Assembly: GCA_039024555.1 (NCBI GenBank)
Contig: JBCCQQ010000012.1
Location: 41,347-105,346 of the forward strand
Origin: Cyanobacteria bacterium P01_D01_bin.156
GTDB taxonomy: Bacteria; Cyanobacteriota; Cyanobacteriia; Phormidesmidales; Phormidesmidaceae
Length of the DNA stretch: 64,000 nucleotides
Direction of reading: 5' to 3'
Shown: positions 45,161-62,441 of the stretch, piece after piece
Layout: each line of letters begins with the position of its first letter
Numbering within the stretch: position 1 is the first letter of the stretch
Notes under the pieces: model-generated
Database searches by the model: none
What the model saw: the letters and a program-made list of their open reading frames with translations, nothing else
Told to the model about the DNA's origin: nothing
Program-made: the position numbers and the translations under genes

Positions 45161-45401
45161 TGCAGGGCACACCTATCTGATCAGCACGAGTAAGAGGTAA
45201 AAGATTAAATATATTAAGTAATCTTTCTAATATCAGCTATTTATCAGCACAGATAGACTGATGCCCATAGAATTGAGTTATCAGGATTGATGAGGTCTCT
45301 ATGAGCCCGTTGCGGGGCTTCAGAAGACTTCATGCTTAGGCTCTACCCCTTTTCAATAAAGGCATAATCCCTTCACGGCAGCATTGTCAGGAGTGCGCAT
45401 C

Positions 45402-45671
45402 ATGCTCCTTTTTGTCAGCAAGCGGCAAGCGACGGAATGCTTGAACCTGAGTGGTTCAACGCTGAAAAAGTATCGACTCAATGGGGAGTGGATTGAAGGT
45501 CTGCATTGGGTCCGCATTAACAGTCGCTGTATTCGATACAATCTGGAACTGATTGAGGATTGGTTGCATAACCGGGGTAACTCGGCAGCGCATATGCGTG
45601 CGATCGCAACCTACCAGCAACGGCTCTTGAGTAATCAAAAGAAATCCAAGGCATCGAGGCATCATGGCTAA
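45402..45671 (+). CDS. Excisionase/AlpA-like HTH DNA-binding protein of a mobile element
   Basis: FVSKRQATECLNLSGSTLKKYR...WIEGLHWVRINSRCIRYNLELIEDW. Confidence 0.7.
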   Translation: MLLFVSKRQATECLNLSGSTLKKYRLNGEWIEGLHWVRINSRCIRYNLELIEDWLHNRGNSAAHMRAIATYQQRLLSNQKKSKASRHHG

Positions 45672-45912: not shown

Positions 45913-46034
45913 GCGACCGGTCTCAACACAACGTGCGGTGCTTTTGATATGTTGGCTTTGGCTGATGCCATCTGCTGTGTCAGCCCTTTTCGTTTCGATT
46001 CTATGTACAGCTCTACTTGTTTGATATCAATTGC
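45913..46034 (-). mobile_element. N-terminal remnant of an IS21-family (IstA) transposase
   Basis: AIDIKQVELYIESKRKGLTQQMASAKANISK/(frameshift)RTARCVETGR resembles the IstA N-terminal HTH (QV.LYM..R..G.TQ..AAAKAGIS.R..RRIE). Confidence 0.6.
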
Positions 46035-47461
46035 TACAGTGGCTTTGATGGAGATTTAGGTACCCTTTTTCTTGAGGACTTTAGGGGCTTTTTAGTTGGT
46101 GAACTGGTTGCTTTAGTTGGTTTCTTGGCTGGATTGGATACTTTTTTTGTTGGAACAGATGCTTGTTTTTTAGGAGAAAGCTGTTTGTCCAATTCACGTC
46201 GTCTATCTGCGTCTTGAGCCACTATTTTTGCTCTGCGGGTGGCTTCTTGTTTTCGGGCATTCTCGAATTCAGAATTTCGTGAGTTGGCAACTATTTTTTG
46301 AGCTTGATTGGAGTTTGCTAGTCGATTCAGGGGAATATAGTCGCTTTTGAAGTTGAGCTCTACTGAAGAGGTTAACTCTACATTAACGTTTTCTTCTTCT
46401 GTGGTGTGCGATCGTTCAGTCGAAACGTAGCCAATCGTATTTTGCAGTTGAGCATCGACCCCCCATGGGCCAACTTTGGCTCCTCCCTTTACAGAAATTT
46501 TATTAGTCATGTCGAATCGGTTACCTTTATCTGCCTGGGCAGCGCTTCGAGCATCAATATGAAATCGCATGGTCGCATTTATTCTGCCGCTCTCAATGAC
46601 AATACGCCGCAGACCCATTTGTACCAGCGTGGCTAGCATTTGCTGCCGGGTTTTGGCTAGGTGACGACGCACAAATGGCAGCAGCGTTTTTTCTGGGTCT
46701 CCGCGCGTGGGTAGTGAACTCTTGTCATCTAAGCCTAATGATGCTTGAAGGGCCTCTTGTGAGGGCATTTTTGCTCCAGAAAGTAAGCGAATTGTAGTGT
46801 TACGACCGGTTGTGTTTTGAGGGGTGTGATCGCCCCAAAAATCATCATTGTCTCGATCTCTGTCCGTCAACTCAAACGAGTCAGGGAAACGTTCAACTAA
46901 CCAAGTTCGAGCCTGACTAGGTGCCATGTTGGTATCGGCAAATCCTTCTGTCGACGCTGCCACATTGTTCAAGAGTTCAATATACATATGCATTTGCTGC
47001 ATATCCGAATCGACTATTGCTTTGAAAACACCATTGATTAGTTCTGCAACAAAGCGAGGAAAAGAAACTGCATTGATAACTCGCCGTGTATTACCGGCGA
47101 GTCGATCGATCGCTTTGCCCCCATGATCATCTGCAGCAGACTGAGCGGTGGCTAGAGGCGGAGATAACTCTATCTCATTTTCTCCAGTAGGAAGGTCTTC
47201 CAGATTCAATGTTTCAGAAGTCTCTTCTAATGCCCTGACAGTATTCTCACTGATCATCTCTTCTAATATCAAGCCCACTGCAGTTTGACAAACATCTACC
47301 ATTTTATGGGCTAAGTTTCGCTGACTTTTTGGATCTAATTCTTGATAGGCTGGTGATTCCAACAGCAAGGCTTTAACACTCTGGCGAACAACTGGAAGAG
47401 GTGTCTTTGTTGTATCATTAGAATGAATTTGATCAGGAGAGACTGTGTTAGGATAGGCCAT
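46034..47461 (-). CDS. Hypothetical protein, operon family-X paralogue D
   Basis: VSFPRFVAELINGVFKAIVDSDMQQM, RQQMLATLVQMGLRRIVIESGRINA, VELNFKSDYIPL; Lys/Pro-rich tail. Confidence 0.9.
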   Translation of the reverse strand: MAYPNTVSPDQIHSNDTTKTPLPVVRQSVKALLLESPAYQELDPKSQRNLAHKMVDVCQTAVGLILEEMISENTVRALEETSETLNLEDLPTGENEIELSPPLATAQSAADDHGGKAIDRLAGNTRRVINAVSFPRFVAELINGVFKAIVDSDMQQMHMYIELLNNVAASTEGFADTNMAPSQARTWLVERFPDSFELTDRDRDNDDFWGDHTPQNTTGRNTTIRLLSGAKMPSQEALQASLGLDDKSSLPTRGDPEKTLLPFVRRHLAKTRQQMLATLVQMGLRRIVIESGRINATMRFHIDARSAAQADKGNRFDMTNKISVKGGAKVGPWGVDAQLQNTIGYVSTERSHTTEEENVNVELTSSVELNFKSDYIPLNRLANSNQAQKIVANSRNSEFENARKQEATRRAKIVAQDADRRRELDKQLSPKKQASVPTKKVSNPAKKPTKATSSPTKKPLKSSRKRVPKSPSKPL

Positions 47462-48420
47462 TAGCGCCCTCCTATAGTGAAAGGCTCATGATTGGTAGGT
47501 GTAGCTGGTATGGATGGCTGAGTAATTTGCAGCCAAGCGATCGCACTAGCGACAACAGCATGATCTACAGGCACCCATTGTGCCAAACTATCCTCTAAAT
47601 GAGGAGAAACCTTTGCTAGCCAAGCCAATAGCTTCATGCCATGACGTCCCCGCTCTACATGCAAATCGATATTGATCACAGTTCCAGACGATTGATCAGT
47701 CGCGATCAATTGCATTGCCCGACGTAAAGCGGTCCAGATAGAGCGGCTACCCAGCGCTCGCTGTAGGTCTGGCTGCTTTAAAATGTACAATACTTGCTGA
47801 ATAGAGCGAAGCAGGGCTTGCGCGGCGAAGGGACCTATGCTGCCTGAGCGACTGATGACGTTGTAAGAAAGCTGCTGGGCCGCAATGCGAATTGGAATGT
47901 CACGACTGGATTGATTGATTGATTTCTGGTCAGATACTGATGTTTGAAGGGCGGTTGCTAGTTGAATGAATAAGGGTTCAAAGTTGAGATTGCGCCCGTT
48001 GGGGGCTGCAAAGGTAGGACCGGCTGAGGTGCCAAACAGTCTAGAAAAAAGTGCTTGACGTTCTATCTGAGTGAATCTCTGGTGGCGTTTTTCCCAAAAC
48101 TTTATGAGTGGAGAGGCGGCTGTTCCCAGATCGGCTCTGATGCCACCACTGATTGCTAGTCCAGCGAATGTTTCTACTGAGGTGAGGAGTTGGATGGCTT
48201 CGAGTTCGGAAGCCAAGTATAGGATTGCGATCGCTTTCAAATGAGCCTGATCTGCCTGAGAGCCCAGGATAGGCGGTAGTTCAATTGTGCCCAGAGAAGG
48301 ATCGCCAAAGGCAAGAGTCGAAAGCTGGGCAGACAGGTGATGAATATCACTCACCAGTTGTTGGCTGGCAGCTAATCCCTGATCCAACTGCTCTAAGCGT
48401 TGTGCCTCCAAAAGATCCAT
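47461..48420 (-). CDS. Hypothetical protein, family-Y paralogue (homologous to the C-terminal half of 52128..54266)
   Basis: LYLASELE..LL..VE...G...F...ERQALFSRLFG aligns with IYFAAILE..LF..VD...G...F...DRRNLYARTLG; ATG 48420 just after upstream stop; TAATG overlap with the next gene. Confidence 0.85.
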   Translation of the reverse strand: MDLLEAQRLEQLDQGLAASQQLVSDIHHLSAQLSTLAFGDPSLGTIELPPILGSQADQAHLKAIAILYLASELEAIQLLTSVETFAGLAISGGIRADLGTAASPLIKFWEKRHQRFTQIERQALFSRLFGTSAGPTFAAPNGRNLNFEPLFIQLATALQTSVSDQKSINQSSRDIPIRIAAQQLSYNVISRSGSIGPFAAQALLRSIQQVLYILKQPDLQRALGSRSIWTALRRAMQLIATDQSSGTVINIDLHVERGRHGMKLLAWLAKVSPHLEDSLAQWVPVDHAVVASAIAWLQITQPSIPATPTNHEPFTIGGR

Positions 48421-48424
48421 CTGC

Positions 48425-49636
48425 CTACGCCTCGTCGACTTTTTTCTTAGGCGGCTGAGCATTTCCTTGAATGGCCGCGATCATCTGGGGGCTGGCCATT
48501 TTTTCCATCGGCATATAGTCGCTCTTGAAGTTGACGCGAACTTCGCCCGTGAGTTTTGCCTTAACCTCTGCTTTGGATGCAGAAGTTTCATCTAAAGAGG
48601 ATTGAACCGTTGCAAGGTGACTTGTTCTAGATGTAACGCTTGCACTGGCTTGAACAGGCGAAAACCAACCGCCAAAGCTAGCGCCAGCCTTAGCTTCAGT
48701 GCCAGATTTTGACCTGTCGTACAGAGAAGCTTTGGACTGACGTCTAGCGATATCTGAGGCACGCATGCCGAAGACAACTTTAGCGTTAATTTGGCCGTCG
48801 GTAACGACAATTCGATTAATGCCTAGCATAACCATTGAGGCGAGTAGCTGCTGTCGGCTGCGGGCAATTTGTAGCCGAGCGGCCAGCACTAAACGACGTT
48901 CTTGGCTTTCTTCAGAAATATCAGTGATGGGTTCCTTAAGATCTAACTCGCTGGAGATGGTTTTGAGGGCCTCTGACTCATCTTCGGCGGTTACTTGTAA
49001 TTTTGGTTTTGCTGCTGTTTGCGTATCAATATCGCCATCGGCAAAGCCGAAGCTGCCCTGCTCAACCTCGACACCTAGCTTGTCGGGAAAGCGTTCTGCT
49101 AACCAATCACGAGCGTTGTTTTCAGTAATATTGTCTTGTGCAAACTGATCAACTGTTTTAGCAACATTGGCAAGGAGTTCTCCATAGGCTTTCATTTGCT
49201 GAATAGAAGAATTCACAATTGCCTGGAAAACGTTTTCAATCAGGCCAGAGACAAAAGCTGGAAAATCTACTTTATTTACCAGTTCTCCAAACTGCTCTGT
49301 TCCCTGGCGAACAGCACCCGCCTCAAAATCTTCGCCCGCAAATCCAGGATCGCTAGCGGCTCGCTTGCGGGCTGTTTCAGTAGCATCGGCCTGGGTTTGA
49401 GATAAAATGCCTCCCTCAGACGACAGTTCTTGAGCTGCCAACCCGTCTGGATTCACCATATATGATGAGACATCGACCATCGACTGTGCTAGCTGCCGCT
49501 GATCATCTGGAGAGAGCTTGGCAAAACCGGGTGAAGCCTGAAGGATTTTTCGCACTTCAGGGCGAACAAGGCTGAGGGTTCCGTCATTTTTCCAGTTCGG
49601 CTGCTCGTTGGTTTGAGAAGATAGAGAAGTATCCAT
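48425..49636 (-). CDS. Hypothetical protein, family-X paralogue C
   Basis: VDFPAFVSGLIENVFQAIVNSSIQQMKAY, RQQLLASMVMLGINRIVVTDGQINAK, GEVRVNFKSDYMPMEKMA. Confidence 0.9.
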   Translation of the reverse strand: MDTSLSSQTNEQPNWKNDGTLSLVRPEVRKILQASPGFAKLSPDDQRQLAQSMVDVSSYMVNPDGLAAQELSSEGGILSQTQADATETARKRAASDPGFAGEDFEAGAVRQGTEQFGELVNKVDFPAFVSGLIENVFQAIVNSSIQQMKAYGELLANVAKTVDQFAQDNITENNARDWLAERFPDKLGVEVEQGSFGFADGDIDTQTAAKPKLQVTAEDESEALKTISSELDLKEPITDISEESQERRLVLAARLQIARSRQQLLASMVMLGINRIVVTDGQINAKVVFGMRASDIARRQSKASLYDRSKSGTEAKAGASFGGWFSPVQASASVTSRTSHLATVQSSLDETSASKAEVKAKLTGEVRVNFKSDYMPMEKMASPQMIAAIQGNAQPPKKKVDEA

Positions 49637-49681
49637 GGTTTCCGTCTTTGTAGCTCAAGTTAATTGATATATTTTTTGGTA

Positions 49682-51049
49682 CTAACTTGTAGGAGACGGA
49701 TTGCTACTATCATTCCCAGATGAAGGCGGTGCCGAAGCACCCCTGGCACCAGATTGTTGTTTGGGGTTAGCTGCATTTTGAATCATGGCAATTTGAAACG
49801 AATCAGCCATTTTTTCTAGCGGTAAAAAATCACTTTTGAAATTTACTTCGACAGTGCCAGCAAGGCTAGCCTTAGTCTGTAAGGCTGCATCCGTACTTTC
49901 CTGGCTGGCGCTCGCCAAGGTTACCACTGGCGACTGAGTATGCTTGTAAGTTCCTTTCGAATAATAGCTTCCATCTCTTTTTTCCTCTTCTACATCTTCA
50001 GATTTTGCACCATCTTTGCTTTTTGATAGGTTAGTTGTTCTTCTCTCTTCTCCGCCCTCTTCCCCATAATCATACTCACCTTCAGAACCGTACATTCTTT
50101 CTAACTGGCCACTCGCATTCCTGGCATAATCGAACTGAGTAGCGCTTCGTCGAAACTTAAGGTTATCTCTAGCCTGGAAATTATACATAACTTTGGCTGA
50201 GATTTTTCCATCGGTTACCACAATTCTATTGATTCCCATAAGTACCATGGTTGCCAGCAATTGCTGACGACTGGTGGCTAGCTGGGTACGTGCTGCTGGA
50301 ACTAGCTTTTTCTCAATGCTTTCATCATCCAGGCTAGAAATCTGGCCACCGTCTACAGGAAGCGTATTGACTCTCTTAAGTGCTTCCGACTCATCAGCAT
50401 CATCTCGCAATCTCACTCTAGGCCCACCATTCTCATCCCCAAAATCGCCTGTGTCAATATCAACCACAAACAGATCGGGGAATTGATCGACTAAGTGATC
50501 CCGTCCCTGGTTAGCTGATACGTTTTCATCCCTGAATTGATCGATCGTTTTGGCGACATCTGCAACTAGCCGACCATAGGCTTCCATCTGCTCGATAGAA
50601 GATTGCACAATGGAGTGAAATACGCCGGAAATAAGACCAGAGACAAAGGTCGGAAAATTTACGCTCTGGAGCAATGCGCCAGCGACAGCAGCGCCTTCTC
50701 GTGCTGCTTGCGCCTGAAACTTTGGGCTGTTTGCTCTTTTTGTCAAATCTTCTCTAACGCCTGTTCTTGTTGGATTGCTAGCAATCTCTGCACGTCTGAG
50801 AGCATCATTCTCCAGTCCAATTGCATAGGGATCTTCTAGCGCCGTCTTCTGGCGCTTGGTCGTCGGTAGCTTATTGCCTCGGATGCCATCAGGTTCTGCC
50901 AGGTATGAAGCAATTTGAACAGTGTGGTTTGCAATTTCTTTTTGTTTGTCGGGGGGTAGAGAACAAAAGGCATCACTCTTTAGTAACAAGTCCTTCACAT
51001 TTTGACGGGCCAGTGATAGGGTTTCTCCACTGGGCTGATTGTTATTCAT
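49682..51049 (-). CDS. Hypothetical protein, family-X paralogue B
   Basis: VNFPTFVSGLISGVFHSIVQSSIEQMEAY, RQQLLATMVLMGINRIVVTDGKISAK, GTVEVNFKSDFLPLEKMA; ATG 51049 overlaps the upstream stop. Confidence 0.9.
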   Translation of the reverse strand: MNNNQPSGETLSLARQNVKDLLLKSDAFCSLPPDKQKEIANHTVQIASYLAEPDGIRGNKLPTTKRQKTALEDPYAIGLENDALRRAEIASNPTRTGVREDLTKRANSPKFQAQAAREGAAVAGALLQSVNFPTFVSGLISGVFHSIVQSSIEQMEAYGRLVADVAKTIDQFRDENVSANQGRDHLVDQFPDLFVVDIDTGDFGDENGGPRVRLRDDADESEALKRVNTLPVDGGQISSLDDESIEKKLVPAARTQLATSRQQLLATMVLMGINRIVVTDGKISAKVMYNFQARDNLKFRRSATQFDYARNASGQLERMYGSEGEYDYGEEGGEERRTTNLSKSKDGAKSEDVEEEKRDGSYYSKGTYKHTQSPVVTLASASQESTDAALQTKASLAGTVEVNFKSDFLPLEKMADSFQIAMIQNAANPKQQSGARGASAPPSSGNDSSNPSPTS

Positions 51050-52094
51050 AAGGGTGTCCTTTTGCCGATAGATTTGCGAGCTGATTTTCACCCAGTGCGA
51101 ATTCGATAGGGCGCAAATATAGGCTGACTTTGGCCGGATTATGCGGAGTGATAATGACGCTCAGCACAGAGAATTGGCCAGGCCAACCGTGGGTGTCGGG
51201 GGTAAAGGCCTGTAGCCAACGCTGTAAGGATTGTAGTTCTCGGGGGCGTTCTGCCAGTCCAAGGGTGAGGAGTTTGAGGAATTCTGGGGGAAAATCGGGA
51301 AGCATACCGAGGGCAACTTCTAGCTTGACTTCTGGATCTTTGAGTGATCCTGCTAAGCCGATGAAGAGTGATCGCGCAGGCAAGCTAAACCGTCCACCCA
51401 AAGAAAGTCCAAATACCTGCATCACAGCAGACATTTGGTGCTCTAGGCCCAAATGAGTCATGAGTGGATTAAGCTCGCTCAGACGCACGGGCTTCCAGTG
51501 CAAAAAGGTCAGCCGCTGCCGACCGCTATTGCGCTGACAAGAGATGGTGGTAAAAATCGGGACGAGATCTGGTAAATATGATTGGGCGGTTCGAGCCAGT
51601 TGCTGCAAAGCCGATGGCAGTGAATTGATTTGGTTTGGATGAATTTCGTAATAAACCTTGGAAGAATGTAGACCATCGCGATCATAGGAGTTGCCAAACC
51701 ATGCACCGTAGGTCAAGGTTGGATTGCCAAATAAACTGCGCCATTCTTCACTGCTTTGATCAAACCAGTGAAGTGCTTCTGGGCCGAATTGAGAATTGAC
51801 CAATCGGCGCATCTCTCGGGTCGATTCGTCTCGCCGGGAAACAGGTAGAACACCAGGGCCAAGTGGCTCAATCACAAAGCGGAGGGTTTTAGGTTCCCTT
51901 GCGGAGAACGAGGGCTCGAAAGGGATAGTTCCTGGTGCAAGCGTATTTTGAGCGTATTTTTGATCACCGACGGGTAGCTGAAATGAGCGATCTAGCAATC
52001 CCCCCACATATGGTAAAGGGTTACTGGCTCCAATGGTTTCAGCAGCCTGCTGAACCCGATACTTAATGGCATTGGCAGCAGCTTGTATAGACAT
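51042..52094 (-). CDS. Hypothetical protein, probable ABBA-fold / DMATS-like prenyltransferase homologue
   Basis: IPFEPSFS..PKTLRFVIEPLG, WFG...KVYYE, KVSLYLRP resemble the DMATS motifs P.E.S...LR...EP and K.Y; 350 aa; GAGGAG RBS. Confidence 0.5.
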   Translation of the reverse strand: MSIQAAANAIKYRVQQAAETIGASNPLPYVGGLLDRSFQLPVGDQKYAQNTLAPGTIPFEPSFSAREPKTLRFVIEPLGPGVLPVSRRDESTREMRRLVNSQFGPEALHWFDQSSEEWRSLFGNPTLTYGAWFGNSYDRDGLHSSKVYYEIHPNQINSLPSALQQLARTAQSYLPDLVPIFTTISCQRNSGRQRLTFLHWKPVRLSELNPLMTHLGLEHQMSAVMQVFGLSLGGRFSLPARSLFIGLAGSLKDPEVKLEVALGMLPDFPPEFLKLLTLGLAERPRELQSLQRWLQAFTPDTHGWPGQFSVLSVIITPHNPAKVSLYLRPIEFALGENQLANLSAKGHPYE

Positions 52095-52127
52095 AGTTTA
52101 TCTCCTCGGTAATTGCCTCCTGTTCAT

Positions 52128-54266
52128 CTAAATGTTGCCGACACCAACAGATTCGAGCATGTCTTGAGCAATCGATGGGATTTGGACAGGACGAGACGTC
52201 AGTGTTGGACCCTCATAGGGGTTGGCGTAGGTCTCAATTTTGTTATCTGGTGTTCCGGTTACAGCTAGCCATCGCTCACAGGCATTTACTAAATCTGAGT
52301 CATGTGGGCTAATCATCGCAGTTGATCCAGAGGCATGTCCGTACGGCATCGCGATCTCGTTGATGTCCAGAAGAGTAGGACTATTCACAGAAGATAAATC
52401 TGTTGCATGATTTGCGAGCCAGCGAATAATAACAGCGCCTGAAGATGCCATCGTTCGATATTGAATGCTGTTGCGCGGGCCGCCTAGGTCGGTTGCTGCA
52501 ACTTGGTCAATAACGCCATACATATCTTTCGCGCCATAAGCACCTTTCACCTCTGGGTCCGACAGGATTTTAATATCATCTTTAATCTGCCTTTCTAGTT
52601 TTACCGCTGCATAGTGCGCGATAGAGAATCCGTGTAAAGATAGATTTGCAGCTAAGTCTCGACCTGATTTTCGAATTTGTTCCTGGCTGACTCGGTATGG
52701 AATGCTGGAGCGCAGAAGCGTATCAACATTTGTTTGACGAGCAAATGACGAGATAGCAGAGATAAAGCGCATCCAAAGCATCTGAAAATCTCGGTTCACC
52801 AGTCCACTAGCTTCTCCGCCTGGAAATCCCAGCGTCCGAGCATAAAGATTACGCCTGTCGTATTCAGAAAACTGCTTGATATTATTTTCCATACGCTCGA
52901 ACAAAAGATCGCCCGCATGGCTTTTGCCCAAAGGCAACATTCCGATTTGAAAAAGCTCAACCAGCCTATCCACCACCTGAAATAGCTTTAGGTCTTCTAA
53001 AATGGCAGCGAAGTAAATTGCCTGCATTGCCAGAATGTTATCTTTGATGATCTCTACGCTAGATTCCTGTTCTAGATCGGGCAAATTGATCTCAAAAGTA
53101 GAGCCGGGCGCGTCTTCATCTGCGGCAATGTAGCGGCTCAAGGCCGTTTTTGTATGCAGAGAAAGGTACCTATCTTTAGCGGCGATTCCTTGATTCGCTA
53201 GCGTTTTGACAACTGTGGCCCACTGCTGTGTATTTACAGATTTGGAAGCGAACTTATTTTGGGATTGGCTGTTGCTTTCCTCGGCCAGAATGTCATAGAC
53301 CCCATCAAATAGATCTTTGTGATTGTTGTACTCGCTTCTTGCAAAAGAAAGCCCGTCTGTAAACCGGATGCCTAGCTTTGGATCGGTAATATGATTGCGC
53401 TGTAAGATACCATAAACCGCAGCGAGTTCTTTCTCATCGCTAGTAATACTTTGAAAGTTTTCTTGACTACGAAGCTTGCCAAAGAAGTGATCTTCAAGCT
53501 TTTGATTTGTTTGAGCAAAGGCCTTCCTCACTGCTTCAAACAAGGGATCTACCACCCAAGAACTGGGGCGAATAGGCGTGTCTTTGCTAACTTCTTCTAT
53601 CCCATAGAGCTTTCTGTTGATGGACCTTAGCTCTCTTTCGTGAGAATTTGGTAAGCTACCATTGTTTTTATTCTTTTTAGATAGGAGTTTAGTTCTCTCA
53701 CTTTCCAAAGCTTGGCGCAGTTGTTCATTGCGCTCTCGCATATCCACGAATGCCACTGAATTGCTAATGCTCTTTCTAGCTTCTCCAACAAATCTTTCTG
53801 GATTGGGTACGATGTCATTACCGTTCCTCCTGAGTTTATCTGTAATGATAGACTGATTGGCTTGTGCAAGTCTTTCAGGTGTGTCAAAACCATCATTAAT
53901 CAGTCTCTCTGCCGCCTGCACCAAGAGATCCGCATCAAGATTCTCCCCACCAGCTACCTGGTAAATAAATTGTGCTAAAGCATACTGCTTAGCCTCTTTC
54001 CGTAGTCCTTCTAGGTCAATGGAGCTAGCATCAATGCTTGTGAGGACGTTCTCAATTGTTGTTTGATCTCGACGGATAAAATCGTCCGTCTTGCCATTCA
54101 AAAGAAATACTAGTCTTGAAAAACTATCAATTCCGAACTTGGTGATAGCTTCTTGTCTTGCGTTGTCAATGCTGGAAATGTCTATCAGCATTTTACCGAA
54201 AGGACTCATTGATTTATTTCCTAAGTGATGTACAGATTTGAGGTGCTCTAGAGGGTTTACCCACAA
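52128..54266 (-). CDS. Hypothetical protein, family-Y domain with long N-terminal extension containing an HhH-like motif
   Basis: 712 aa ORF; AERLINDGFDTPERLAQA HhH-like segment; C-terminal half paralogous to 47461..48420; start uncertain (TTG 54266 or ATG 54209). Confidence 0.85.
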   Translation of the reverse strand: MWVNPLEHLKSVHHLGNKSMSPFGKMLIDISSIDNARQEAITKFGIDSFSRLVFLLNGKTDDFIRRDQTTIENVLTSIDASSIDLEGLRKEAKQYALAQFIYQVAGGENLDADLLVQAAERLINDGFDTPERLAQANQSIITDKLRRNGNDIVPNPERFVGEARKSISNSVAFVDMRERNEQLRQALESERTKLLSKKNKNNGSLPNSHERELRSINRKLYGIEEVSKDTPIRPSSWVVDPLFEAVRKAFAQTNQKLEDHFFGKLRSQENFQSITSDEKELAAVYGILQRNHITDPKLGIRFTDGLSFARSEYNNHKDLFDGVYDILAEESNSQSQNKFASKSVNTQQWATVVKTLANQGIAAKDRYLSLHTKTALSRYIAADEDAPGSTFEINLPDLEQESSVEIIKDNILAMQAIYFAAILEDLKLFQVVDRLVELFQIGMLPLGKSHAGDLLFERMENNIKQFSEYDRRNLYARTLGFPGGEASGLVNRDFQMLWMRFISAISSFARQTNVDTLLRSSIPYRVSQEQIRKSGRDLAANLSLHGFSIAHYAAVKLERQIKDDIKILSDPEVKGAYGAKDMYGVIDQVAATDLGGPRNSIQYRTMASSGAVIIRWLANHATDLSSVNSPTLLDINEIAMPYGHASGSTAMISPHDSDLVNACERWLAVTGTPDNKIETYANPYEGPTLTSRPVQIPSIAQDMLESVGVGNI

Positions 54267-54284
54267 ATGATTTCTATTTCCTGG

Positions 54285-55736
54285 TCAGAGACTCGTCTTT
54301 GGCGGCGGCAACCCAGAATGTGTCGATTTATCAATGCGCCTATCTAGAAGACTCAAAGCAGCATACGTATCTAGAACACCTAATCCACAGCCCTTAACAC
54401 TCTGCCTTTGCCATGGCTGTGCTGATGCATTCAATAACTGGTGAACATCAGCACTACTTAAAGGGAAGGAACGTCTTGCCGCTCGGCTCACCAACAATCC
54501 GGCGGCAGATGCAACGAAGGGGGCTGCAAAGCTGGTCCCTGTGACTAAAGAGTAGCCATTCAACCCAGCACTATGAATTTGCTCACCGGGTGCGCACAAG
54601 GTGACGTGCTCTCCTCTTGTACTAAAACGAGAGGGATTATTTTCTGCATCTACTGCGCCAACCGCAATCACGTTTGGCAGTGCTGCTGGATAGTATTGTT
54701 CCTCTTTGCTAGAATTGCCACTGGCAGCGACCATTACGCAGCCTCGGGTTAAACCATAGAGAACAACATCTGCATGAGGCTGAAAATCACTCACTTCTTC
54801 AGCAGGCGCAGGAGTACCAAAGCTCATATTGATCACTTTAGCACCCAAGTCGATGGCATATTTTACACCCAAATCAATGTCGGCAATTGATCCTAGCCCT
54901 ACCAAACGTTGTTTACCTGGAAACTTGGCCGCACCTAGAACCCGAACTGGCAACAAACTGCATGCTCCTGCTAGCCCTGGCGGTAAGTGCTGTCCGACTG
55001 CTCTCACAATCGCCGCACAAGCCGTTCCATGACCAACCAAATCTTCAGGATCAGTATCAATTCCCAGCTGGTCACCCACGAATCGAATTCCTGTTGCCAA
55101 GTCACCACTGCCTAGCTGCACAGTATCTACTCCTGCCCGCATCCGTCCTCGCAGCTCTGGATGCCCTTGCACCACTCCGGTATCCACCACCGCAACAATC
55201 ACTGCCGGATCACCTGGTTCATAGGCAAGGGCCTCCGCCATATTTACCTGCTGCCTCGACAGCCAAGCCTCTTCCAAACTCACCGAGGACACAGCACGTG
55301 ATGGCGTGGCCACATTGAAAGGCAGTGCCGAAAGATAATTAGGACCTGCTTGCTCAACTACGGCTGTCTGCCTTAACGCATCTACTAAATCGGTTATACA
55401 ACAAGCCCGATCTGCCTCAATTCGAAAGGTACGAGACAGCCCCGTCACATGTTCTACATCGTCATAGTTTCGGTGCCGCTGGCCAGGCCGACGACAGCTG
55501 GAGGCTGCCGTAAATACCCGACTAATCCGCACTCCATGGGAGAAATGTTTGAGAATGCGGTCTACAACACCAACATTCAGCCGAGCTGCCGCTTGCTGAG
55601 CATGGCACCGAACATCCAACGAGGTCGGAATGTTCTCGGGTGCTTCTCCTAATGCCAGTTTTATAACTAGGCTTCCTGGCAAACTGTAAAGCGGACTCCG
55701 AAACTCCCAAGGAGTTGTTAATCGCTGCACATTCAT
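54285..55736 (-). CDS. S8 family serine peptidase, no signal peptide
   Basis: VAVVDTG, GHGTACA, AASGN, GTSFAAPFVA; N-terminal pro-domain; ATGA overlap with the upstream gene. Confidence 0.95.
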   Translation of the reverse strand: MNVQRLTTPWEFRSPLYSLPGSLVIKLALGEAPENIPTSLDVRCHAQQAAARLNVGVVDRILKHFSHGVRISRVFTAASSCRRPGQRHRNYDDVEHVTGLSRTFRIEADRACCITDLVDALRQTAVVEQAGPNYLSALPFNVATPSRAVSSVSLEEAWLSRQQVNMAEALAYEPGDPAVIVAVVDTGVVQGHPELRGRMRAGVDTVQLGSGDLATGIRFVGDQLGIDTDPEDLVGHGTACAAIVRAVGQHLPPGLAGACSLLPVRVLGAAKFPGKQRLVGLGSIADIDLGVKYAIDLGAKVINMSFGTPAPAEEVSDFQPHADVVLYGLTRGCVMVAASGNSSKEEQYYPAALPNVIAVGAVDAENNPSRFSTRGEHVTLCAPGEQIHSAGLNGYSLVTGTSFAAPFVASAAGLLVSRAARRSFPLSSADVHQLLNASAQPWQRQSVKGCGLGVLDTYAALSLLDRRIDKSTHSGLPPPKTSL

Positions 55737-56506
55737 ATGTCACCTCCACTGTTAGTGACAATTTCTGGCATCCCAACATCAATCACGTCGGCAGAGGCCC
55801 AGTCAAAGTTGGTTTCTGCTACCATGCCAGGTGCTGTTTCCACCTGTAAAGCGCCGCTCATATGTGAGCCTGGATAATCCACCACAAGCTCCTTAGTTGT
55901 AGACTCCAAAATCTGAACATTTTCACCATTGATTCGCACTGTTGGTGGCTGTTTTTCTTGAGCTAGGTTAAAGCCTCGAATGCGCATACGGGACGTTCCT
56001 TCTGGCAATACCTGCTTCACCTGTGGCTGAGAAGCCCGTTTTAAGGCTGCTCGCAGCCGCATTGCTGGAATTTGAGAGATTTGTTCTACCACATTCTCAT
56101 TTTTCTGCTGTTGCAATTCGCGTAGCTGAGACACGCTATGAATGCCTGCCCATTCCAATCGACGCTGTTCTTCTTCCGTAATGTCATCTCCTAATACTTC
56201 TTTCAGCGAAGGTTCATCGGCTTCTGCTGTAAATGTATTTTCCTCAATCATCGGACGGGTGATAGTTGTGAAATCAAAATGCAGCACGCTGGTTTCTTTC
56301 GCATTTGGGCCTGCTGGACGAATGAGGATCTGGCTTTTGGCCATATCGACATGAGCGCGTAAATCAATCGAGAGTTCCTTGAGGGCAAAGGTCAAAGGCA
56401 GGCCAAACTGAGCCTTGAGAGACATACTTTTCTGCGCCCGGTCTAACTGACTGGTCAAGGCTTGAATGAAGTCTTCTAGGGGTAGTCCTTCCTCGTAATT
56501 GCTCAT
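55733..56506 (-). CDS. Hypothetical protein: Trypco2-like N-domain + HhH-like motif + IPT/TIG-like Ig domain
   Basis: LPLEDFIQALTSQLDRAQ...FALKELSIDLR; RRLEWAGIHSVSQL; PQVKQV...IRGFNL...PTVRING...G.LQVET. Confidence 0.7.
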   Translation of the reverse strand: MSNYEEGLPLEDFIQALTSQLDRAQKSMSLKAQFGLPLTFALKELSIDLRAHVDMAKSQILIRPAGPNAKETSVLHFDFTTITRPMIEENTFTAEADEPSLKEVLGDDITEEEQRRLEWAGIHSVSQLRELQQQKNENVVEQISQIPAMRLRAALKRASQPQVKQVLPEGTSRMRIRGFNLAQEKQPPTVRINGENVQILESTTKELVVDYPGSHMSGALQVETAPGMVAETNFDWASADVIDVGMPEIVTNSGGDI

Positions 56507-56745
56507 GTCTGATCTCCTAAATAAAGATTTATTTTTAATCGACTAGGTCGCTCTTCAAACCCTGTTTTTATCTCCCAGCGGGGTAGGTCGGCCAATAGTC
56601 GAAAGCCCACTTGCGTCATTTCTGCTCTGACTTCGATAGGAATATTGATAACGGCATTTGTTACCCGCAGCTCAGGGTGATCGTGCTCAATCGCATTAAC
56701 CGATTCCATCAGCTCTACCAGGGTTTCCCATAATTCTCGACGCAT
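56503..56745 (-). CDS. Small hypothetical protein (80 aa; helix + beta-strands)
   Basis: Starts 3 nt after the upstream stop; ATGA overlap downstream; GGAGG upstream. Confidence 0.8.
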   Translation of the reverse strand: MRRELWETLVELMESVNAIEHDHPELRVTNAVINIPIEVRAEMTQVGFRLLADLPRWEIKTGFEERPSRLKINLYLGDQT

Positions 56746-56748
56746 GCC

Positions 56749-58032
56749 TTAAGAACCTCCAGATTCAGCAGATGGGGACGGTACAGCAGAAGACGGTGCA
56801 GGCAGCGCAGTTGCTGGTGGGGAAGGCGTCTGTTGTGAATTAGCAGGTGGTGAGTTAGCAGGTGGTGAGCTAGTGGATAATGTGCGTGCATTACTTTGCA
56901 GAAGTGCTAGCTGTGCGGCATCTGCAAAGCTTTCTAACGGCAGGGTTTCACTAGCAAAATTAATTTTGACTTCCCCATATAGATCGGCCTTAATCACCGC
57001 ATCAGATTGAACATTAGCCTCAACCGTCGATACTTTCATGATCGACTGATAAGGATTACGGCCTCGCATTCCCCAAGAGTTTGAGCCAGTTGCTGTGCCC
57101 GGATCTTGTGAAACGGCATACTCAACGGCGGCTTTATCTCTTGCAGCTGCTCGAAACTTTAACTTGGCAGAAATAGAACCATCTCGAACAACAATCCGGT
57201 TCATCCCCATCAGTACCATGGTGGCCAAGGTCTGAAGTCGGTTCGAGCCATATTTACGCCGAGCCGCTGGAATGAGTTGCTCTTCAATCAAAGTTTGCGT
57301 AAAGTCTTCATCTGCTAAACCGTAATCCGCTAGCCAGCTAGGAGAAACATCGTCGCCGTCTTCATTGACGGTGTGCATCGGTCGTAAGCGCGGTTGCCCG
57401 CCGGAAAAATCTAGCTGTAAGTCTCTCGGATAAAGCTCTACTAGCCAGTCGCGAACTTGGTTGGGAGTGACGTTTTCGTCGGTAAATTGATTGACGTCTT
57501 TTGCGACTGCACTGACCAGTCCGGCAAAGGCTTCCATTTGCCGAATAGATGATTCAACAATGGCATCGAAAGTGCCATGCACCAGATTGGCAACAAATGT
57601 AGAAAAATCGAGTTCGTCTAAGACTGCACCTGCTGCGGTTGCAATCTTTTCGGTTGCTGTTTTCTTGGGTTGAGTTGGTGCAATCTCGCTATTTTCTTTG
57701 TTGATAGGCTGCTGGGTGCCTAATCTCTGGCGAGCTAAACCACGGCGACGAGCTAAATCATTGGGCGTTTCCATTGCCATAGCGTAGGGATCGCTTGCAG
57801 GTGGTGAGGGTTTAGCTTGCAGTGTAGGCTGAGCGGTTAATCCAAAGGCATAAGGATCAACTGCTGCTGGCTCAGGGGATTGCTGTAGAGCCTGTTGAAT
57901 AGAATCAAGATCGCGCTTTAGGGTCAGCTGTTGTTCAGGAGGCAGTGATTGAAAGGCAGGCGCTTGCTCTAGTCGCGATGCGACCTGATTTGTTAAATTC
58001 TGGGCGGCTATAATCTCTGAGGATCCGTTCAT
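56749..58032 (-). CDS. Hypothetical protein, family-X paralogue A
   Basis: LDFSTFVANLVHGTFDAIVESSIRQMEAF, RLQTLATMVLMGMNRIVVRDGSISAK, GEVKINFASETLPLE. Confidence 0.9.
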   Translation of the reverse strand: MNGSSEIIAAQNLTNQVASRLEQAPAFQSLPPEQQLTLKRDLDSIQQALQQSPEPAAVDPYAFGLTAQPTLQAKPSPPASDPYAMAMETPNDLARRRGLARQRLGTQQPINKENSEIAPTQPKKTATEKIATAAGAVLDELDFSTFVANLVHGTFDAIVESSIRQMEAFAGLVSAVAKDVNQFTDENVTPNQVRDWLVELYPRDLQLDFSGGQPRLRPMHTVNEDGDDVSPSWLADYGLADEDFTQTLIEEQLIPAARRKYGSNRLQTLATMVLMGMNRIVVRDGSISAKLKFRAAARDKAAVEYAVSQDPGTATGSNSWGMRGRNPYQSIMKVSTVEANVQSDAVIKADLYGEVKINFASETLPLESFADAAQLALLQSNARTLSTSSPPANSPPANSQQTPSPPATALPAPSSAVPSPSAESGGS

Positions 58033-58051
58033 TGTTTATCTCTAACGCTTC

Positions 58052-59293
58052 CTATTTCAGACGGTAAACAATGTCTGTAAAGCGATCTGAATGGCGAAGT
58101 CGTTCCAATCGCTGTTTTGCGGCTCCTGATGATGAAGCTAGTAATCGATCCATCATTTCGTTTTGGCTGATGAATACGGCACCCAGTTCTCGTAAGTTAC
58201 CAACTAAGGCGGCATGGGTAGTGGGATTGAATTGACCGTTTTGGTCAGCTTTGGGTATCCAGCTAATGGTTTGTTGAAAAGAAAGTAGGTCTTTGAATCC
58301 TAGCAGCTGTAATGCGTTTTCTCGTTGCATTTGTGTACGAAGTGGACCTGCTGACTGAAGTATCCACCGTAGGCCACCTCCCAATCCTTGTATGACGACG
58401 CGGTCAAAGACCATAGCAAGGGCACGATCGCTTACCAAACCAAGATTGTGAGCAATCGGTAACATCGGCCGAAACAAGTACTCAATGGCGGTTTCGTTTT
58501 GTGCCGCCTGAAAGGTAGGAATCGCTCCTGATTTTTGAAATCGCGCTATCCATTCATCGCTCCAGAGAACATTACCACCTATAGGCTTTAATCGTGCTTC
58601 TTCAGTACTAGCGGTTGTCACTGCTAAAAGTTCAGAGGTTTGGGGGCCAAAGAGCTGAGAAAACTGATCGGTATCTCTACGCTGCATGACGGTCAATAGC
58701 TGACCTAATAATCCAGAGGCTTGCGTAAAAAGAACCAGGCCAAAGCCTAAGCCGAATTGACGCTGCTGGGCAGGCTGGTTATGTATCAGGGATTCAAGGT
58801 TGGCCGATACAGCTGTGTAGGGCGTCTCTCCTGAATCAGCGACCGCGACTTCTCGAATGATTTGATACATCTCCTGAAAGTCTAACGGAATAGCTTCTGG
58901 AGACTGAGAAGGTATCGACGGTAAGTCAGGCTCAGACCCTATCAGCATCGTATAGTCAGATAATTTAAGTGATACGTTTTCTATTTTCTCTGCTGCTGGC
59001 TGTTCTGGGGCGTTTTCTTTCCCAACTGTGTGAGCTGTGGCAAGTTCTGAAATAGGTACAGTAACCGGGATTACAGACTGAATCACGTCAGGTGGTGGGG
59101 CTGATAGCTGAAACCTAATCTTTTCATTCTGTTGATTATCGCTATCTGTGCTGCCAGGTAATTTCTCTGTAGATAGGGATTGCGATCTCACAACAACCTC
59201 TACTGGCTGCGTGATATCAGGCGGCGGCGGCGACAGCTGTGGCTTTGCTAAACCATTATTTGAATTCAAGGCTGGGCTGGCATGCATAGCCAT
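58052..59293 (-). CDS. Lysozyme-like fold protein with Pro-rich N-terminal repeats and possible peptidoglycan-binding segment
   Basis: VAVADSG..Y.AV...FGLGFGLVLFTQASG.LG.LL...F...Q...RALAMVFDR..QG.GG; LLSFQ...DQNGQFNPTT; ATG 59293 after GGAG. Confidence 0.55.
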   Translation of the reverse strand: MAMHASPALNSNNGLAKPQLSPPPPDITQPVEVVVRSQSLSTEKLPGSTDSDNQQNEKIRFQLSAPPPDVIQSVIPVTVPISELATAHTVGKENAPEQPAAEKIENVSLKLSDYTMLIGSEPDLPSIPSQSPEAIPLDFQEMYQIIREVAVADSGETPYTAVSANLESLIHNQPAQQRQFGLGFGLVLFTQASGLLGQLLTVMQRRDTDQFSQLFGPQTSELLAVTTASTEEARLKPIGGNVLWSDEWIARFQKSGAIPTFQAAQNETAIEYLFRPMLPIAHNLGLVSDRALAMVFDRVVIQGLGGGLRWILQSAGPLRTQMQRENALQLLGFKDLLSFQQTISWIPKADQNGQFNPTTHAALVGNLRELGAVFISQNEMMDRLLASSSGAAKQRLERLRHSDRFTDIVYRLK

Positions 59294-59327
59294 TACTCCA
59301 TCAAAATGAAATCTATCAAAATCGAAA

Positions 59328-62300: not shown

Positions 62301-62441
62301 ATCCGTCCCAAAAAACAGAGTTGGATCGCTCGCGACAGCGACTTCTATCCAAGCAGGACTGATCCCAGTGCGGATGGTAAATCCCATAACTGGAAATTGT
62401 CGACTCACTTCCTGACGATTGGCCTGAATCAACGCTGGCAT
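59328..62441 (-). CDS. Multidomain hydrolase: unknown N-domain + permuted papain-like C92 (YiiX/YebB) + N-acetylmuramoyl-L-alanine amidase (Amidase_2) + AvrRpt2/C39-like cysteine protease + unknown C-domain
   Basis: GDLILTT...SHAILY...FICSELV; IVIHIT...SAHYVI...AWHA...SIGIEH...ILGH...DCP; QPTAMSCWAAAAAM...HVVV...VLDPWP; GAGGA RBS; no signal peptide. Confidence 0.9.
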   Translation of the reverse strand: MPALIQANRQEVSRQFPVMGFTIRTGISPAWIEVAVASDPTLFFGTDAKSRRTSSNFYSSRAVGLLPAEKGEAVYLIPPTAMARFVGQSRLYYALAVYSQPNFSNPEVVRIDPKAMPYIRISNTFSGNNRRLMEIPNRRMGSVNNGKSYAENGDRTSLEWGGDIAEPGEIERIINEKPTIVSSSDEPDSSIQPATESQSVRAFVYDDGYDDSLWYSAQDADGLIDSDAGDPYNEPIPEEIPSKELPSRKTLSPEPEPPLKVLQIPLDPGKGGRSIDQQSLIAGDLILTTTQSWTATGIRFVTGSAVSHAILYIGNGNIVEAYSQAGVVQRTLAEALKDASLAVAYRIPDITNQQVQKAVAFAQQQVGKEYGGWTALVAGILSPSTSDLTLGPSDKTFICSELVLAAYHHAGIAITYGLPERSDAGDIARVALKRGLKYVGHLIADDAYTHYVYANNSSTLSSVQGIVEEGDDRGFEGPILTVGDIPVVSEEQSYSMAFVEPEYPQASRFAPAHPDKYTPKTDRQINRIVIHITDSSAKATTNGMVRWLQKKDTTKVSAHYVIGRDGEVVQMVKHKDKAWHANRANRDSIGIEHIANTTDSPPTEAQYCASAALVRWLADTYGIPLDRQHILGHVEADSSTTHKDCPNAVWDWDYYMGMVISGTCYLRSTTQPSVSTNGMQSYVPMLSGQSFDVTWQDVSLLPQPTAMSCWAAAAAMIVGWRDRLSISAKDIVMGQGPWATYQNGLNPKDVPTLASSWKLVVETPRSYAISELRQMLEQNGPLWIGEATPSLHVVVMAGLYGDGTIKGTHVRVLDPWPVGQGSTYDLPFQNFIQQYEQATAINSVNIQVLHAGGREDSSNHYSHSQQALEGVTSAIAGAVITRILDNKGDITWKLSQLKGIKYPADQKKNAGSASYKEQIITVKGPRLGTVGGLDEIYVDSELSFQYNGRSLGNVSISITKANDAVGAGLNVEASIMNDANVYQEKSKENAVSEGFAAIKVRFHYRFTNVIYDDRIAITDLVLFGNGMHNISYRWTQP

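Follow-up and report, generated by a model that had tools for sequence, protein, structure and literature searches.

An operon of 12 tightly packed genes, all on the minus strand, was found at 46034..62441 of a 64,000-nucleotide stretch of cyanobacterial DNA (the window). It encodes four paralogues of an unnamed protein family (family X), an S8 protease and wall-cutting enzymes. The hairpins of family X, one long one per protein and resembling a pore-forming toxin's stem, in an operon with a protease and wall-cutting enzymes and with a common, likely cleavage signal, may therefore be a new way to breach envelopes, pore formation being putative. In the preferred reading, which is given about an even chance, the operon would be an inducible envelope-attack machine, in which an S8-matured hetero-oligomeric long-stem β-barrel acts with freed wall-lytic enzymes against other bacteria. 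An operon with family X, a protease and swappable wall-cutting enzymes is apparently undescribed in family libraries and the open-access literature. Newly noted are the hydrolase polyprotein, the motif common to cargo, X and S8, an 80-aa gene that had been overlooked, a prenyltransferase of DMATS fold and a protein with weak likeness to Trypco2/Pepco.

Four paralogues in a conserved operon

56749..58032, minus strand: family X paralogue A, 427 aa; hairpin 56938-57198, 65-aa insert with weak alternation; motif YAMAME at residue 83
49682..51049, minus strand: paralogue B of family X; hairpin region 49820-50227 with a charged, non-alternating insert of 114 aa; YAIGLE motif at residue 89, numbered from the GTG at 51091
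48425..49636, minus strand: paralogue C of family X (403 aa); hairpin 48509-48814 with arms of about 44 residues and W324/F325 at the tip (AF2 and covariation)
46034..47461, minus strand: paralogue D of family X (475 aa); hairpin 46331-46606 with arms of about 39 residues and, of the four, the most clearly amphipathic face; LATAQS motif at residue 103

A sequence-only reading had placed four paralogues with a conserved scaffold here. All four ORFs were found, with 28-38% identity in pairwise BLASTP (E 1e-32 to 1e-80) and 27-34% identity of B, C and D to A in the alignment. The alignment contains every described scaffold element, namely the N-terminal module, the F..FV..L helix, R..L...(F/Y)P, R.Q.LA..V..G..RIV...G.I.A and V..NF.S...P. 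An in-frame GTG lies 14 codons upstream of the called start of B, at 51091, and the tail of D is Lys/Pro-rich. These are the only family X copies in the genome. The paralogues cluster by operon slot, each slot being its own clade, in line with the suggested subunit-specific roles.

Core gene order was identical in 59/59 loci spanning the operon core, with many phyla represented, and clustering at 50% identity divides the family into about 2,000 groups. Loci were found in Pseudomonadota, Myxococcota, Acidobacteriota, Chloroflexota, Actinomycetota and cyanobacteria. Both diderms and monoderms (for example Kribbella) carry the operon; cultured carriers include Ruegeria, Lysobacter, Roseateles, Ramlibacter and Kribbella. 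Two operons are a minimal version with a single X gene, in which the 712-aa protein described below is kept and the prenyltransferase is missing. Transcription regulators (sigma-54 activators or BTAD/SARP type) made up 18 of 28 hand-picked flanking ORFs; none adjoins the window's own operon.

Family X appears to be unnamed and without a family-library assignment. Pfam gave no match to gasdermin, MACPF-CDC, aerolysin/PA-type, DUF2589 or Trypco families for the four window proteins (E<=0.01) or 98 homologues (E<=0.1), and no match to PDB sequences was obtained. The AF2 monomer of C, of moderate confidence (pTM 0.52), has a helical body, one long hairpin and two 4-residue strands. When the X model was searched against solved structures, the hits reflected mainly the N-terminal helices, the insert being unmodelled.

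A β-hairpin in the variable insert

The inserts of A, B, C and D are 65, 114, 80 and 70 residues long. Covariation shows that, in some state, the insert folds as one long antiparallel β-hairpin whose register continues that of the two conserved strands, in agreement with the earlier proposal of a hairpin flanked by such strands. The strongest covariation antidiagonal lay at insert length + 19 in the length groups 80 (n=122, P<1/300) and 78 (n=23, P<1/300), and the same register was seen in groups 70 (n=32, P=0.003) and 73 (n=9, P=0.03). It recurred in an independent sequence set with 77-residue inserts (n=23, P=0.01). The top covarying pairs in C were 313-336, 314-335, 315-334, 316-333 and 317-332 (z 6.4-9.8). 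Covariation was without significance in 7 of 11 length groups of the first set, including A-like (62) and B-like (100) groups, and in 3 of 4 of the second, the groups being small. The AF2 model of C builds the hairpin base, with 281-297 paired to 354-370. A globular monomer with a disordered insert and no oligomer interface, together with a lack of membrane activity, had been named in advance as evidence against the pore-forming proposal. The disorder was found, in that insert pLDDT was <50 in the monomer of C; a compact globule was not (pTM 0.52), and by covariation the insert does fold in some state.

The insert had been called Gly/Ser-rich. In 376 distinct inserts this held for Ser, with Thr (15.0% and 9.0%, vs 6.3% and 5.2% outside the insert), and not for overall Gly (6.6% vs 6.9%), which is enriched only at the tip (16-26%); Pro is scarce (1.0% vs 7.3%). 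The two insert stretches quoted for C and D were both found in the sequence. Period-2 hydrophobicity compared with 500 shuffles gave z=2.28 (P=0.022) for D, 1.71 (P=0.052) for C, 0.91 (P=0.17) for A and -2.3 for B, consistent with the description of alternation in C and D, a charged insert in B and a short one in A.

Cross-strand hydrophobicity correlated at the covariation register in C-like hairpins (r=0.40, vs -0.01 and 0.07 at +-1) and D-like hairpins (r=0.43, vs -0.10 and -0.08 at +-1). A-like and B-like inserts had no cross-strand amphipathy (r=0.06, 0.03). Trp occurs within the 10-residue tip of 189/206 C-like and 72/85 D-like inserts. The amphipathic character proposed for the C and D inserts is borne out, with one hydrophobic face and a Trp/Gly tip. 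On their outer face, C-like hairpins are Ala-rich and no more than mildly hydrophobic (mean 0.16), and very basic arms occur in part of the second set. Arm lengths differ (36, 39, 44 and 61 residues), which is awkward for one barrel.

These properties bear on the possibility that X forms a polymer (as a tube, cage, collar or fibre) which stays soluble and never enters a membrane, the enzymes being attached to it or enclosed in it once the S8 has acted. The lack of amphipathy in A and B, the mild hydrophobicity of C and the Ser/Thr-rich arms of unequal length all fit such a polymer, and in FliF long hairpins form non-membrane collars. However, a near-invariant Trp/aromatic, Gly-rich tip and an in-register hydrophobic face in the C and D types are typical of membrane-entering stems, and a soluble polymer is considered quite unlikely.

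Comparison with known pore formers

A gasdermin/MACPF-type architecture had been suggested. Gasdermin and MACPF protomers have two transmembrane hairpins from a central twisted sheet, whereas the covariation of X gives a single hairpin register and its AF2 model one hairpin without a central four-stranded sheet; with no Pfam match either, this assignment is not supported. The likeness would be one of working only: the MACPF complex with lysozyme, and gasdermins, show what X may also have, namely non-identical paralogues with unequal hairpins in one ring, protease control and synergy with a wall hydrolase.

Anthrax PA/C2II and aerolysin types are protease-activated, long-stem single-hairpin β-pore formers with all-β bodies and signal peptides. 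They resemble the X operon in having one Ser/Thr-rich hairpin per protomer with a hydrophobic tip, a subtilisin-family cut (a candidate in X) and partner enzymes; among X proteins, only the C-like and D-like ones have such an amphipathic hairpin. X differs from them in its body, which is modelled as helical, and in having no Pfam or PDB sequence match.

The uncharacterised DUF2589 (PF11655) and X have in common, in this order, a long helix, an inserted domain, a strand, a Ser/Thr-rich insert with an aromatic GG-W type tip, a strand and a helix, and DUF2589 cassettes also carry tandem paralogues (atlas feature match with X weak, 0.79). HHalign gave 10-14% probability in the expected register, against 8.6% for a reversed control. 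Core-only profiles were colinear over 93 columns, with a score of 15.3 that lies within the 9.6-18.6 of 15 column shuffles. Both comparisons were read as scoring no higher than their controls. X is set apart from DUF2589 by a candidate N-terminal cap, by the larger size of its inserted domain and by its association with an S8, a prenyltransferase and a polyprotein.

Cargo polyprotein, S8 protease and a shared motif

59328..62441, minus strand: cargo polyprotein, 1037 aa; N-domain ~1-168, C92 permuted papain-like, Amidase_2, C70 papain-like and C-terminal beta domain (Pfam)
58052..59368, minus strand: 438-aa protein; homologues weakly match GH46 (lysozyme superfamily)
54285..55736, minus strand: S8 subtilase, 483 aa (Pfam E 4.5e-37); Asp-His-Ser triad D185, H236, S402 and oxyanion N341 all present

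The first operon gene encodes a polymorphic, leaderless hydrolase polyprotein. The N-terminal domain is conserved across loci, whose remaining domains (amidases, papain-like, trypsin, M15) come in differing combinations, peptidoglycan hydrolases of several kinds among them. No obvious signal peptide was seen in a hydrophobicity scan. Proteins of the 438-aa type matched PF01374 in 4 of 42 cases, below the cut-off (E 2e-4 to 7e-4), and in many loci are fused behind the cargo N-domain.

A short motif precedes the cargo domains, and both the N-terminal linker of X and the propeptide junction of the S8 are enriched for it; through this motif, and as an operon partner, the S8 is tied to family X as had been surmised. 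The pattern read from cargo alone occurred in 44/277 X linkers, against 12.2+-3.5 in shuffled ones and 3/273 in control stretches. A wider pattern was found in 80/277 (12.5 expected) and, applied unchanged to a later-fetched set, in 28/116 (2.8+-1.6 expected). At the S8 junction a loose form was enriched (14/34 vs 5.0) and an Arg-containing form was not (4/34 vs 1.8, P=0.11). The count in cargo itself, 20/23, is circular, the pattern being derived from cargo. The motif is degenerate; the strict form is missing from 197/277 X linkers, from window paralogue C and from one of three tested window cargo sites. The motif suggests an N-terminal cut of X, and cleavage of both X and cargo by the S8 is considered likely.

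Among the operon proteins no strong hydrophobic segment or clear signal peptide was detected (maximum 19-residue Kyte-Doolittle means 0.72-1.55, a crude test), and no export or immunity gene was recognised among the 12 genes. These features, the occurrence in monoderms such as Kribbella, and a GH46-like gene kept at the front of most loci reaching that far would also suit a producer-directed role. The same processing and barrel would then open the producer's own cytoplasmic membrane, letting hydrolases reach its own wall in holin-endolysin-like programmed lysis or be exported, the barrel being a release device and not a weapon. But self-lysis needs one endolysin, and a polymorphic amidase/peptidase/trypsin/papain-like chain better fits an arms race with other organisms. 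A producer-directed role is held to be rather doubtful; it and the envelope-attack reading are not exclusive.

Remaining operon genes

56503..56745, minus strand: 80-aa conserved gene, missing from the list of the sequence-only reading; helix-strand layout recalling Pepco
55733..56506, minus strand: 257-aa protein with an N-part weakly like Trypco2/Pepco, a helical middle and a C-part like TIG
52128..54266, minus strand: 712-aa protein of no named function; C-terminal ~300 aa paralogous to the 333-aa gene
51042..52094, minus strand: 350-aa DMATS/ABBA-fold aromatic prenyltransferase-like protein (AF2 pLDDT 95, pTM 0.91)
47461..48462, minus strand: 333-aa protein of no named function, paralogous to the 712-aa C-part; probably starts at residue 15

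The 712-aa C-part aligned with the 333-aa protein in HHalign at 99.95% (E 1.5e-38); the 712-aa protein had no match among PDB sequences. The 350-aa model has ten strands, as in the PT barrel, and Foldseek returned CymD (E 6e-13, TM 0.69-0.73), then DMATS1, PriB and FgaPT2. Trp_DMAT was matched by 12 of 50 family members. Among 50 homologues, E60 is kept in 41, R72 in 29, K146 in 28, Y148 in 27, R194 in 28, K/R257 in 43, Y326 in 41 and R328 in 50, so that four DMATS-type residues are kept in only 27-29; the eight positions are candidates for the indole-binding Glu and the basic/Tyr diphosphate-binding residues. Cyanobactin pathways also combine S8 proteases (PatA/PatG), ABBA prenyltransferases and a multi-cassette precursor with repeated recognition motifs. 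In the X operon, by contrast, the released units would be folded enzymes of 130-250 aa and the prenyltransferase is closest to DMATS/CymD; the window S8 scores far below the PatA profile cut-off (89.7 vs 421 bits).

An ORF of 60-130 aa stands at the place of the 80-aa gene in 59/60 loci, at least two picks looking out of frame; Trypco2 was matched by 1 of 49 members of its family (E 0.009). In the 257-aa family, 18 of 40 proteins matched Trypco2 at E<=0.1, with 1.7e-4 as the lowest value and the window protein not among the 18, and 7 of 40 matched TIG. The 257-aa gene overlaps the S8 start by 4 nt, the adjacency order being fixed in 59/59 loci. No profile similarity was found between family X and the operon's Trypco2-like gene.

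The Pepco family (named in PMC7159879) comprises 117-aa, homo-oligomeric proteins with a C-terminal tail cut by a sensor-fused trypsin- or cysteine-type protease, a stable barrel being activated by the cut after a conserved Ile; Pepco (Trypco1/Trypco2)-protease pairs are defence modules (10.1101/2025.11.14.688446). Both systems place a protease gene beside a β-barrel former (putative in X), the weakly Trypco2-like 257-aa gene abutting the S8, and both proteins have a helix and one long hairpin. X differs in its size (400-475 aa), four slot-specific paralogues, lack of a Trypco match, candidate N-terminal cap, S8 partner and hydrolase cargo. Anti-phage abortive infection after the manner of Pepco-protease pairs, in which X would supply additional death pores, would agree with the Trypco2-like gene beside a serine protease and with a patchy spread (2/301 searched genomes of the window's phylum, 4 plasmid records). 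It is judged very unlikely, however, as PADLOC 2.0 system-specific profiles matched 0/11 non-protease genes and the S8 matched generic subtilase/IetS models only, no sensor ATPase is found among the 12 genes, dedicated transcription activators adjoin many operons, and variable wall-hydrolase cargo would be superfluous.

Proposed mechanism and significance

In the envelope-attack reading, the components would be made in the cytoplasm. The S8 would cut at the shared motif (roughly aromatic/Leu-small-x-small-Leu/Met/Gln, followed by a residue that is small or acidic), remove a ~85-105-residue N-terminal helical cap from each X protein and chop the cargo polyprotein into single enzymes. Laterally joined, the matured X proteins would form a hetero-oligomeric ring, and every subunit would contribute one long hairpin to a barrel stem of ~120-150 angstrom. 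Formation of a ring or barrel is probable, and insertion of the hairpins into a membrane is somewhat favoured. C and D would provide the amphipathic, Trp-tipped membrane-entering end, with other roles (initiation, cap or lumen) for A and B. Because no export signal is seen, release from the producer would probably be by lysis. Barrel and freed hydrolases/proteases would jointly attack other cells, mainly bacteria; whether other cells or the producer are the target is about evenly balanced. The DMATS-fold enzyme may put a lipid anchor on aromatic residues such as the tip Trp, prenylation of the tip being unlikely.

A more far-reaching proposal, possible though on the doubtful side, is a bacterial membrane attack complex plus lysozyme as a new weapon class. 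Here, 4-5 non-identical subunits, uncapped by a dedicated subtilase and possibly given a lipid anchor by a DMATS-type enzyme that modifies Trp in proteins, would form a long-stem barrel passing polyprotein-cut enzymes into target envelopes, with DUF2589 and Pepco as small cousins.

If this reading is true, the system is a widespread, unnamed means of breaching envelopes. It would bring in pore-forming proteins of a new family whose body is helical, a bacterial example of an effector polyprotein processed by a protease from its own operon and, perhaps, a DMATS-fold enzyme that prenylates proteins. Since cultured carriers and a single-X minimal version exist, the main claims are directly testable. 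Family X would also offer a handle on DUF2589.

Organization and conservation of the family X operon

The four proteins of family X (A to D) claimed by the sequence-only reading are present and are clear paralogues. BLASTP among them gave E values of 1e-32 to 1e-80, the other three share 27-34% identity with A in the alignment, and every motif listed in that reading was found when the four were aligned. They are the only X copies in the genome. All lie in a twelve-gene operon (62441 to 46034, minus strand), whose intergenic gaps are -41 to +45 nt.

Genes of the operon in order (minus strand; genes without other names are called by length)
59328..62441 (-), cargo polyprotein, 1037 aa
(-), 438-aa gene
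56749..58032 (-), X protein A
(-), 80-aa gene
(-), 257-aa gene
54285..55736 (-), subtilase S8
(-), 712-aa gene
(-), 350-aa gene
49682..51049 (-), X protein B
48425..49636 (-), X protein C
(-), 333-aa gene
46034..47461 (-), X protein D

The 72 comparison loci come from the best 80 of 212 matches. At least one other core gene accompanies X in 71/72 of them, and the order 257-S8-712-350 is kept in all 59 loci spanning the 257-aa to 350-aa genes. The 80-aa gene was previously overlooked; an ORF occupies its place in 59/60 loci, at least two of these picks looking out of frame. Some loci carry five X genes. A minimal form (L088, L090) has one X, S8, a 712-type gene and the 80-aa and 257-aa genes, the 350-aa gene being absent. 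Core genes are split in L020, L032 and L043, and an inversion at L054:8847-12846 breaks the operon copy, with parts of C and the 333-aa gene on the opposite strand.

Family X is large (2,071 matches among 8,000 scored candidates; 2,004 clusters at 50% identity) and patchily spread, being found in 2/301 genomes searched in the phylum, this genome included. It occurs in 4 plasmid records, and C had no match in phage records. The family has no name in Pfam, NCBIfam, PHROGs or PADLOC, and NCBIfam and PHROGs name none of the X or accessory genes. An anti-phage death module is a highly improbable reading of the operon.

A tree built on 271 columns from the 158 X proteins that carry the F..FV motif grouped the sequences by operon slot: the first slot in 44/44 cases (support 0.94), B in 29/30, the D slot in 14/15, and C mostly (26/34). 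An additional clade of 27 came from a second operon type. Chance similarity and recent tandem duplication were rejected, as the clades go by slot. Because the clades follow the slots, the tree indicates that the X paralogues are old and specialised.

Among 28 flanking ORFs picked by hand, 18 encode transcription regulators (4 sigma-54 activators, 12 BTAD, 2 others) and two encode DUF3467. In three loci the DUF3467 gene lies between a sigma-54 activator and the cargo gene (L002:5431-5859, L006:6681-7136, L089:3658-4065). No regulator stands beside the window's own operon, and a promoter/terminator scan of its 3' end was at chance level. The GC content of the operon (0.475) matches that of the genome (0.471). 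Just beyond the 3' end, a 95-aa ORF (45384-45671, +) has a match to phrog_539, an excisionase family (E 7e-6), hinting at a possible mobile-element remnant. Elsewhere in the window, 3793-44640 holds four CHAT-TPR genes, two TPS-domain proteins with a ShlB-type transporter, a second S8, a CHAT-CHASE2 gene, DUF1822 and a caspase-DUF4384 gene. This is a usual kind of cyanobacterial cluster; in other loci nothing tied it to the operon.

The variable insert is a beta-hairpin

Each X protein has an N-terminal helical cap, a cap-to-core linker and, between two conserved strands, a variable insert of 65 (A), 114 (B), 80 (C) or 70 (D) residues. The insert had been likened to a pore-forming beta-hairpin, and the hairpin is upheld by covariation and, for its base, by structure prediction. 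Covariation was measured on equal-length, gap-free inserts (396/479 sequences parsable), with significance taken against column permutations. In 4/11 length groups the strongest antidiagonal was at insert length + 19: 80 (n=122, P<1/300), 78 (n=23, P<1/300), 70 (n=32, P 0.003) and 73 (n=9, P 0.03). The other seven groups were small and did not reach significance. Among X sequences fetched later, 2/4 groups peaked at this register, one significantly (n=23, P=0.01).

The AF2 model of C (pLDDT 75, pTM 0.52; alignment of 150 sequences) comprises a three-helix cap, a long helix (125-159), a small inserted domain, a helix at 243-272 and a two-stranded hairpin base (281-297/354-370), the remaining insert having pLDDT <50. 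The covariation register lies within 2 residues of this base and places W324/F325 of C at the turn. At that register, with insert classes assigned by length, hydrophobicity matches across the strands in C-like (r 0.40) and D-like (r 0.43) inserts and not at +-1; the match is missing in A-like (r 0.06) and B-like (r 0.03) inserts. A helical refolding insert of the MACPF type was rejected, 100-degree periodicity being below that of shuffles (mean z -0.73).

The inserts of C and D had been described as alternating like membrane strands. This stood for D (z 2.28, P 0.022) and was marginal for C (z 1.71, P 0.052); A and B showed none. The Gly/Ser-rich description held in part, the inserts being Ser/Thr-rich and Pro-poor with Gly enriched at the tip only. 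A Trp is found at the tip in 189/206 C-like, 72/85 D-like, 11/27 A-like and 9/58 B-like inserts, and charged residues make up 32% of the tip in the B-like class vs 10-13% in the others.

The hairpin arms have 36 (A), 61 (B), 44 (C) and 39 (D) residues; at 3.3 angstrom per residue those of A, C and D would reach about 120-150 angstrom. We infer that X forms a ring or polymer, because a naked hairpin of such length would hardly be stable by itself. The covariation may reflect a hairpin that is always formed or one that is deployed. No operon gene has a strong hydrophobic segment by a crude test. That the hairpins build a soluble tube or cage is unlikely; for the amphipathic hairpins of C and D, entry of the tips into a membrane is the preferred reading.

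A motif shared by the cargo polyprotein and the X linkers

The window's cargo gene encodes C92, Amidase_2 and C70 domains. In other loci the cargo slot or the operon 3' end carries trypsin, M15, CHAP, Amidase_3, phage-tail lysozyme and VanY in varying mixtures, and a conserved N-domain of ~165 residues begins the front gene in 34/72 loci, and also in L089 and the window. A short motif (e.g. RALE, RPLA, RALD, YARAQE) precedes the cargo domains. It was found at 20/23 anchored cargo sites vs 7.6% of random 9-mers, a circular count since the motif was read from those same sites.

Independent tests were provided by the X linkers. The pattern derived from the cargo alone occurred in 44/277 linkers vs 12.2+-3.5 expected, and in 3/273 control stretches vs 10.5 expected. 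A wider pattern was found in 80/277 linkers vs 12.5 and, unaltered, in 28/116 linkers of the later set vs 2.8 (control 2/117). Strict sites in the window lie at residue 83 of A, 89 of B and 103 of D, C having a loose site only. At the S8 propeptide junction loose forms were enriched (14/34 vs 5.0 and 25/34 vs 14.4), and the Arg form was not. A second cargo motif, [AS]Q[GSA][LYF], was not enriched in X linkers (9/277 vs 6.9), and, for the loose motif, none of the 257-, 350-, 712- and 333-aa genes had a convincingly conserved linker site. A Gibbs motif search on the linkers ran the linker motif together with the last part of the cap helix, and its result was discarded. S8 has a full catalytic triad, and the small P2/P4 residues with Leu/Met at P1 presumably fit a subtilase. 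S8 probably cleaves both the X linkers and the polyprotein.

An unnamed beta domain ends the cargo polyprotein (window 59328-59840, residues about 868-1037), with an amphipathic helix in front and directly after a motif. L006 has two copies, each following a motif, and for this reason the domain is probably a released unit.

The single-X system (L088:5603-15774, L090:1263-16422) occurs in cyanobacteria. Its operons also hold a coiled-coil gene, with PG_binding_1 in L088, and a 721-758-aa gene bearing amphipathic segments, each preceded by the motif; L090 additionally has acidic proteins with repeated motif-like sites. The cargo N-domain profile gave no match to the 721- and 758-aa genes, their likeness being by eye only.

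Comparison with known systems

A likeness to gasdermin/MACPF-type oligomers had been proposed and was not borne out, X being no member by profile and the C model having no two-hairpin topology; aerolysin and Pepco membership likewise found no profile match. With the C model, Foldseek against the PDB gave nothing significant (best E 0.28; top rows FliF, not meaningful; insert mostly pLDDT <50), VIA-align reached a non-significant Z of 4.7 at best, on the N-terminal helices, and a viral structure library gave a non-significant E of 0.035. PDB sequence searches with X, 712-, 333-, 257- and 350-aa profiles and the 438-aa protein were unconvincing; the MarR-like rows for X (E 0.006-0.015) span one helix.

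DUF2589 and X are alike in the order of structural elements. An atlas match was weak (0.79), and profile scores were no better than those of reversed or shuffled controls; kinship is plausible. Besides two paralogues, a DUF2589 cassette at L078:701-3603 has a third, small gene and, by eye, an NlpC/P60-like gene. One of these paralogues ends in a stretch that resembles, again by eye, the middle helical part of the 257-aa gene.

Among the accessory proteins, the 350-aa protein is modelled as a ten-stranded PT barrel (pLDDT 95); its best structural matches are CymD and further DMATS enzymes (E 6e-13, TM about 0.7). Candidate catalytic residues are kept in part, and it may carry out prenylation. 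A weak Trypco2 signal (18/40 members at E<=0.1) marks the 257-aa protein, whose end is TIG-like. The 333-aa protein and the C-part of the 712-aa protein are paralogues (HHalign probability 99.95%); the former had no known match in the PDB sequence search and no usable match in the atlas. Homologues of the 438-aa protein weakly match GH46.

No account of the operon was found in searches of open-access papers; subscription papers and preprint supplements, with possible neighbourhood lists, lay outside this scope. Single parts echo known systems, but the core family and the combination match none of the systems tested.

Discussion

The original observation is confirmed, and its interpretation is partly supported and extended. 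The analysis establishes the operon, the hairpin, the amphipathy of C and D, the clades by slot, the variety of the cargo and the motif, whereas cleavage, ring, membrane entry, target and prenylation are proposals. The operon may work like a protease-activated single-hairpin beta-pore, a likeness of function. Of the characterised cases, Pepco comes closest (10.1101/2025.11.14.688446; also PMC7159879, 10.64898/2026.01.04.697583).

A barrel that serves lysis or export at the membrane of the producer itself is a somewhat unlikely reading, and is compatible with attack on other bacteria. For the attack reading, the most likely one, the following chain is proposed, and we give it, taken whole, about an even chance. 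Expression of the operon would be induced. S8 would take the caps off X and cut the polyprotein, and the X proteins would assemble together into a ring of different subunits, its stem a long beta-barrel, with the hairpin tips of C and D entering a membrane. Together with the freed hydrolases, the barrel would then harm other bacteria after release, probably via lysis of the producer.
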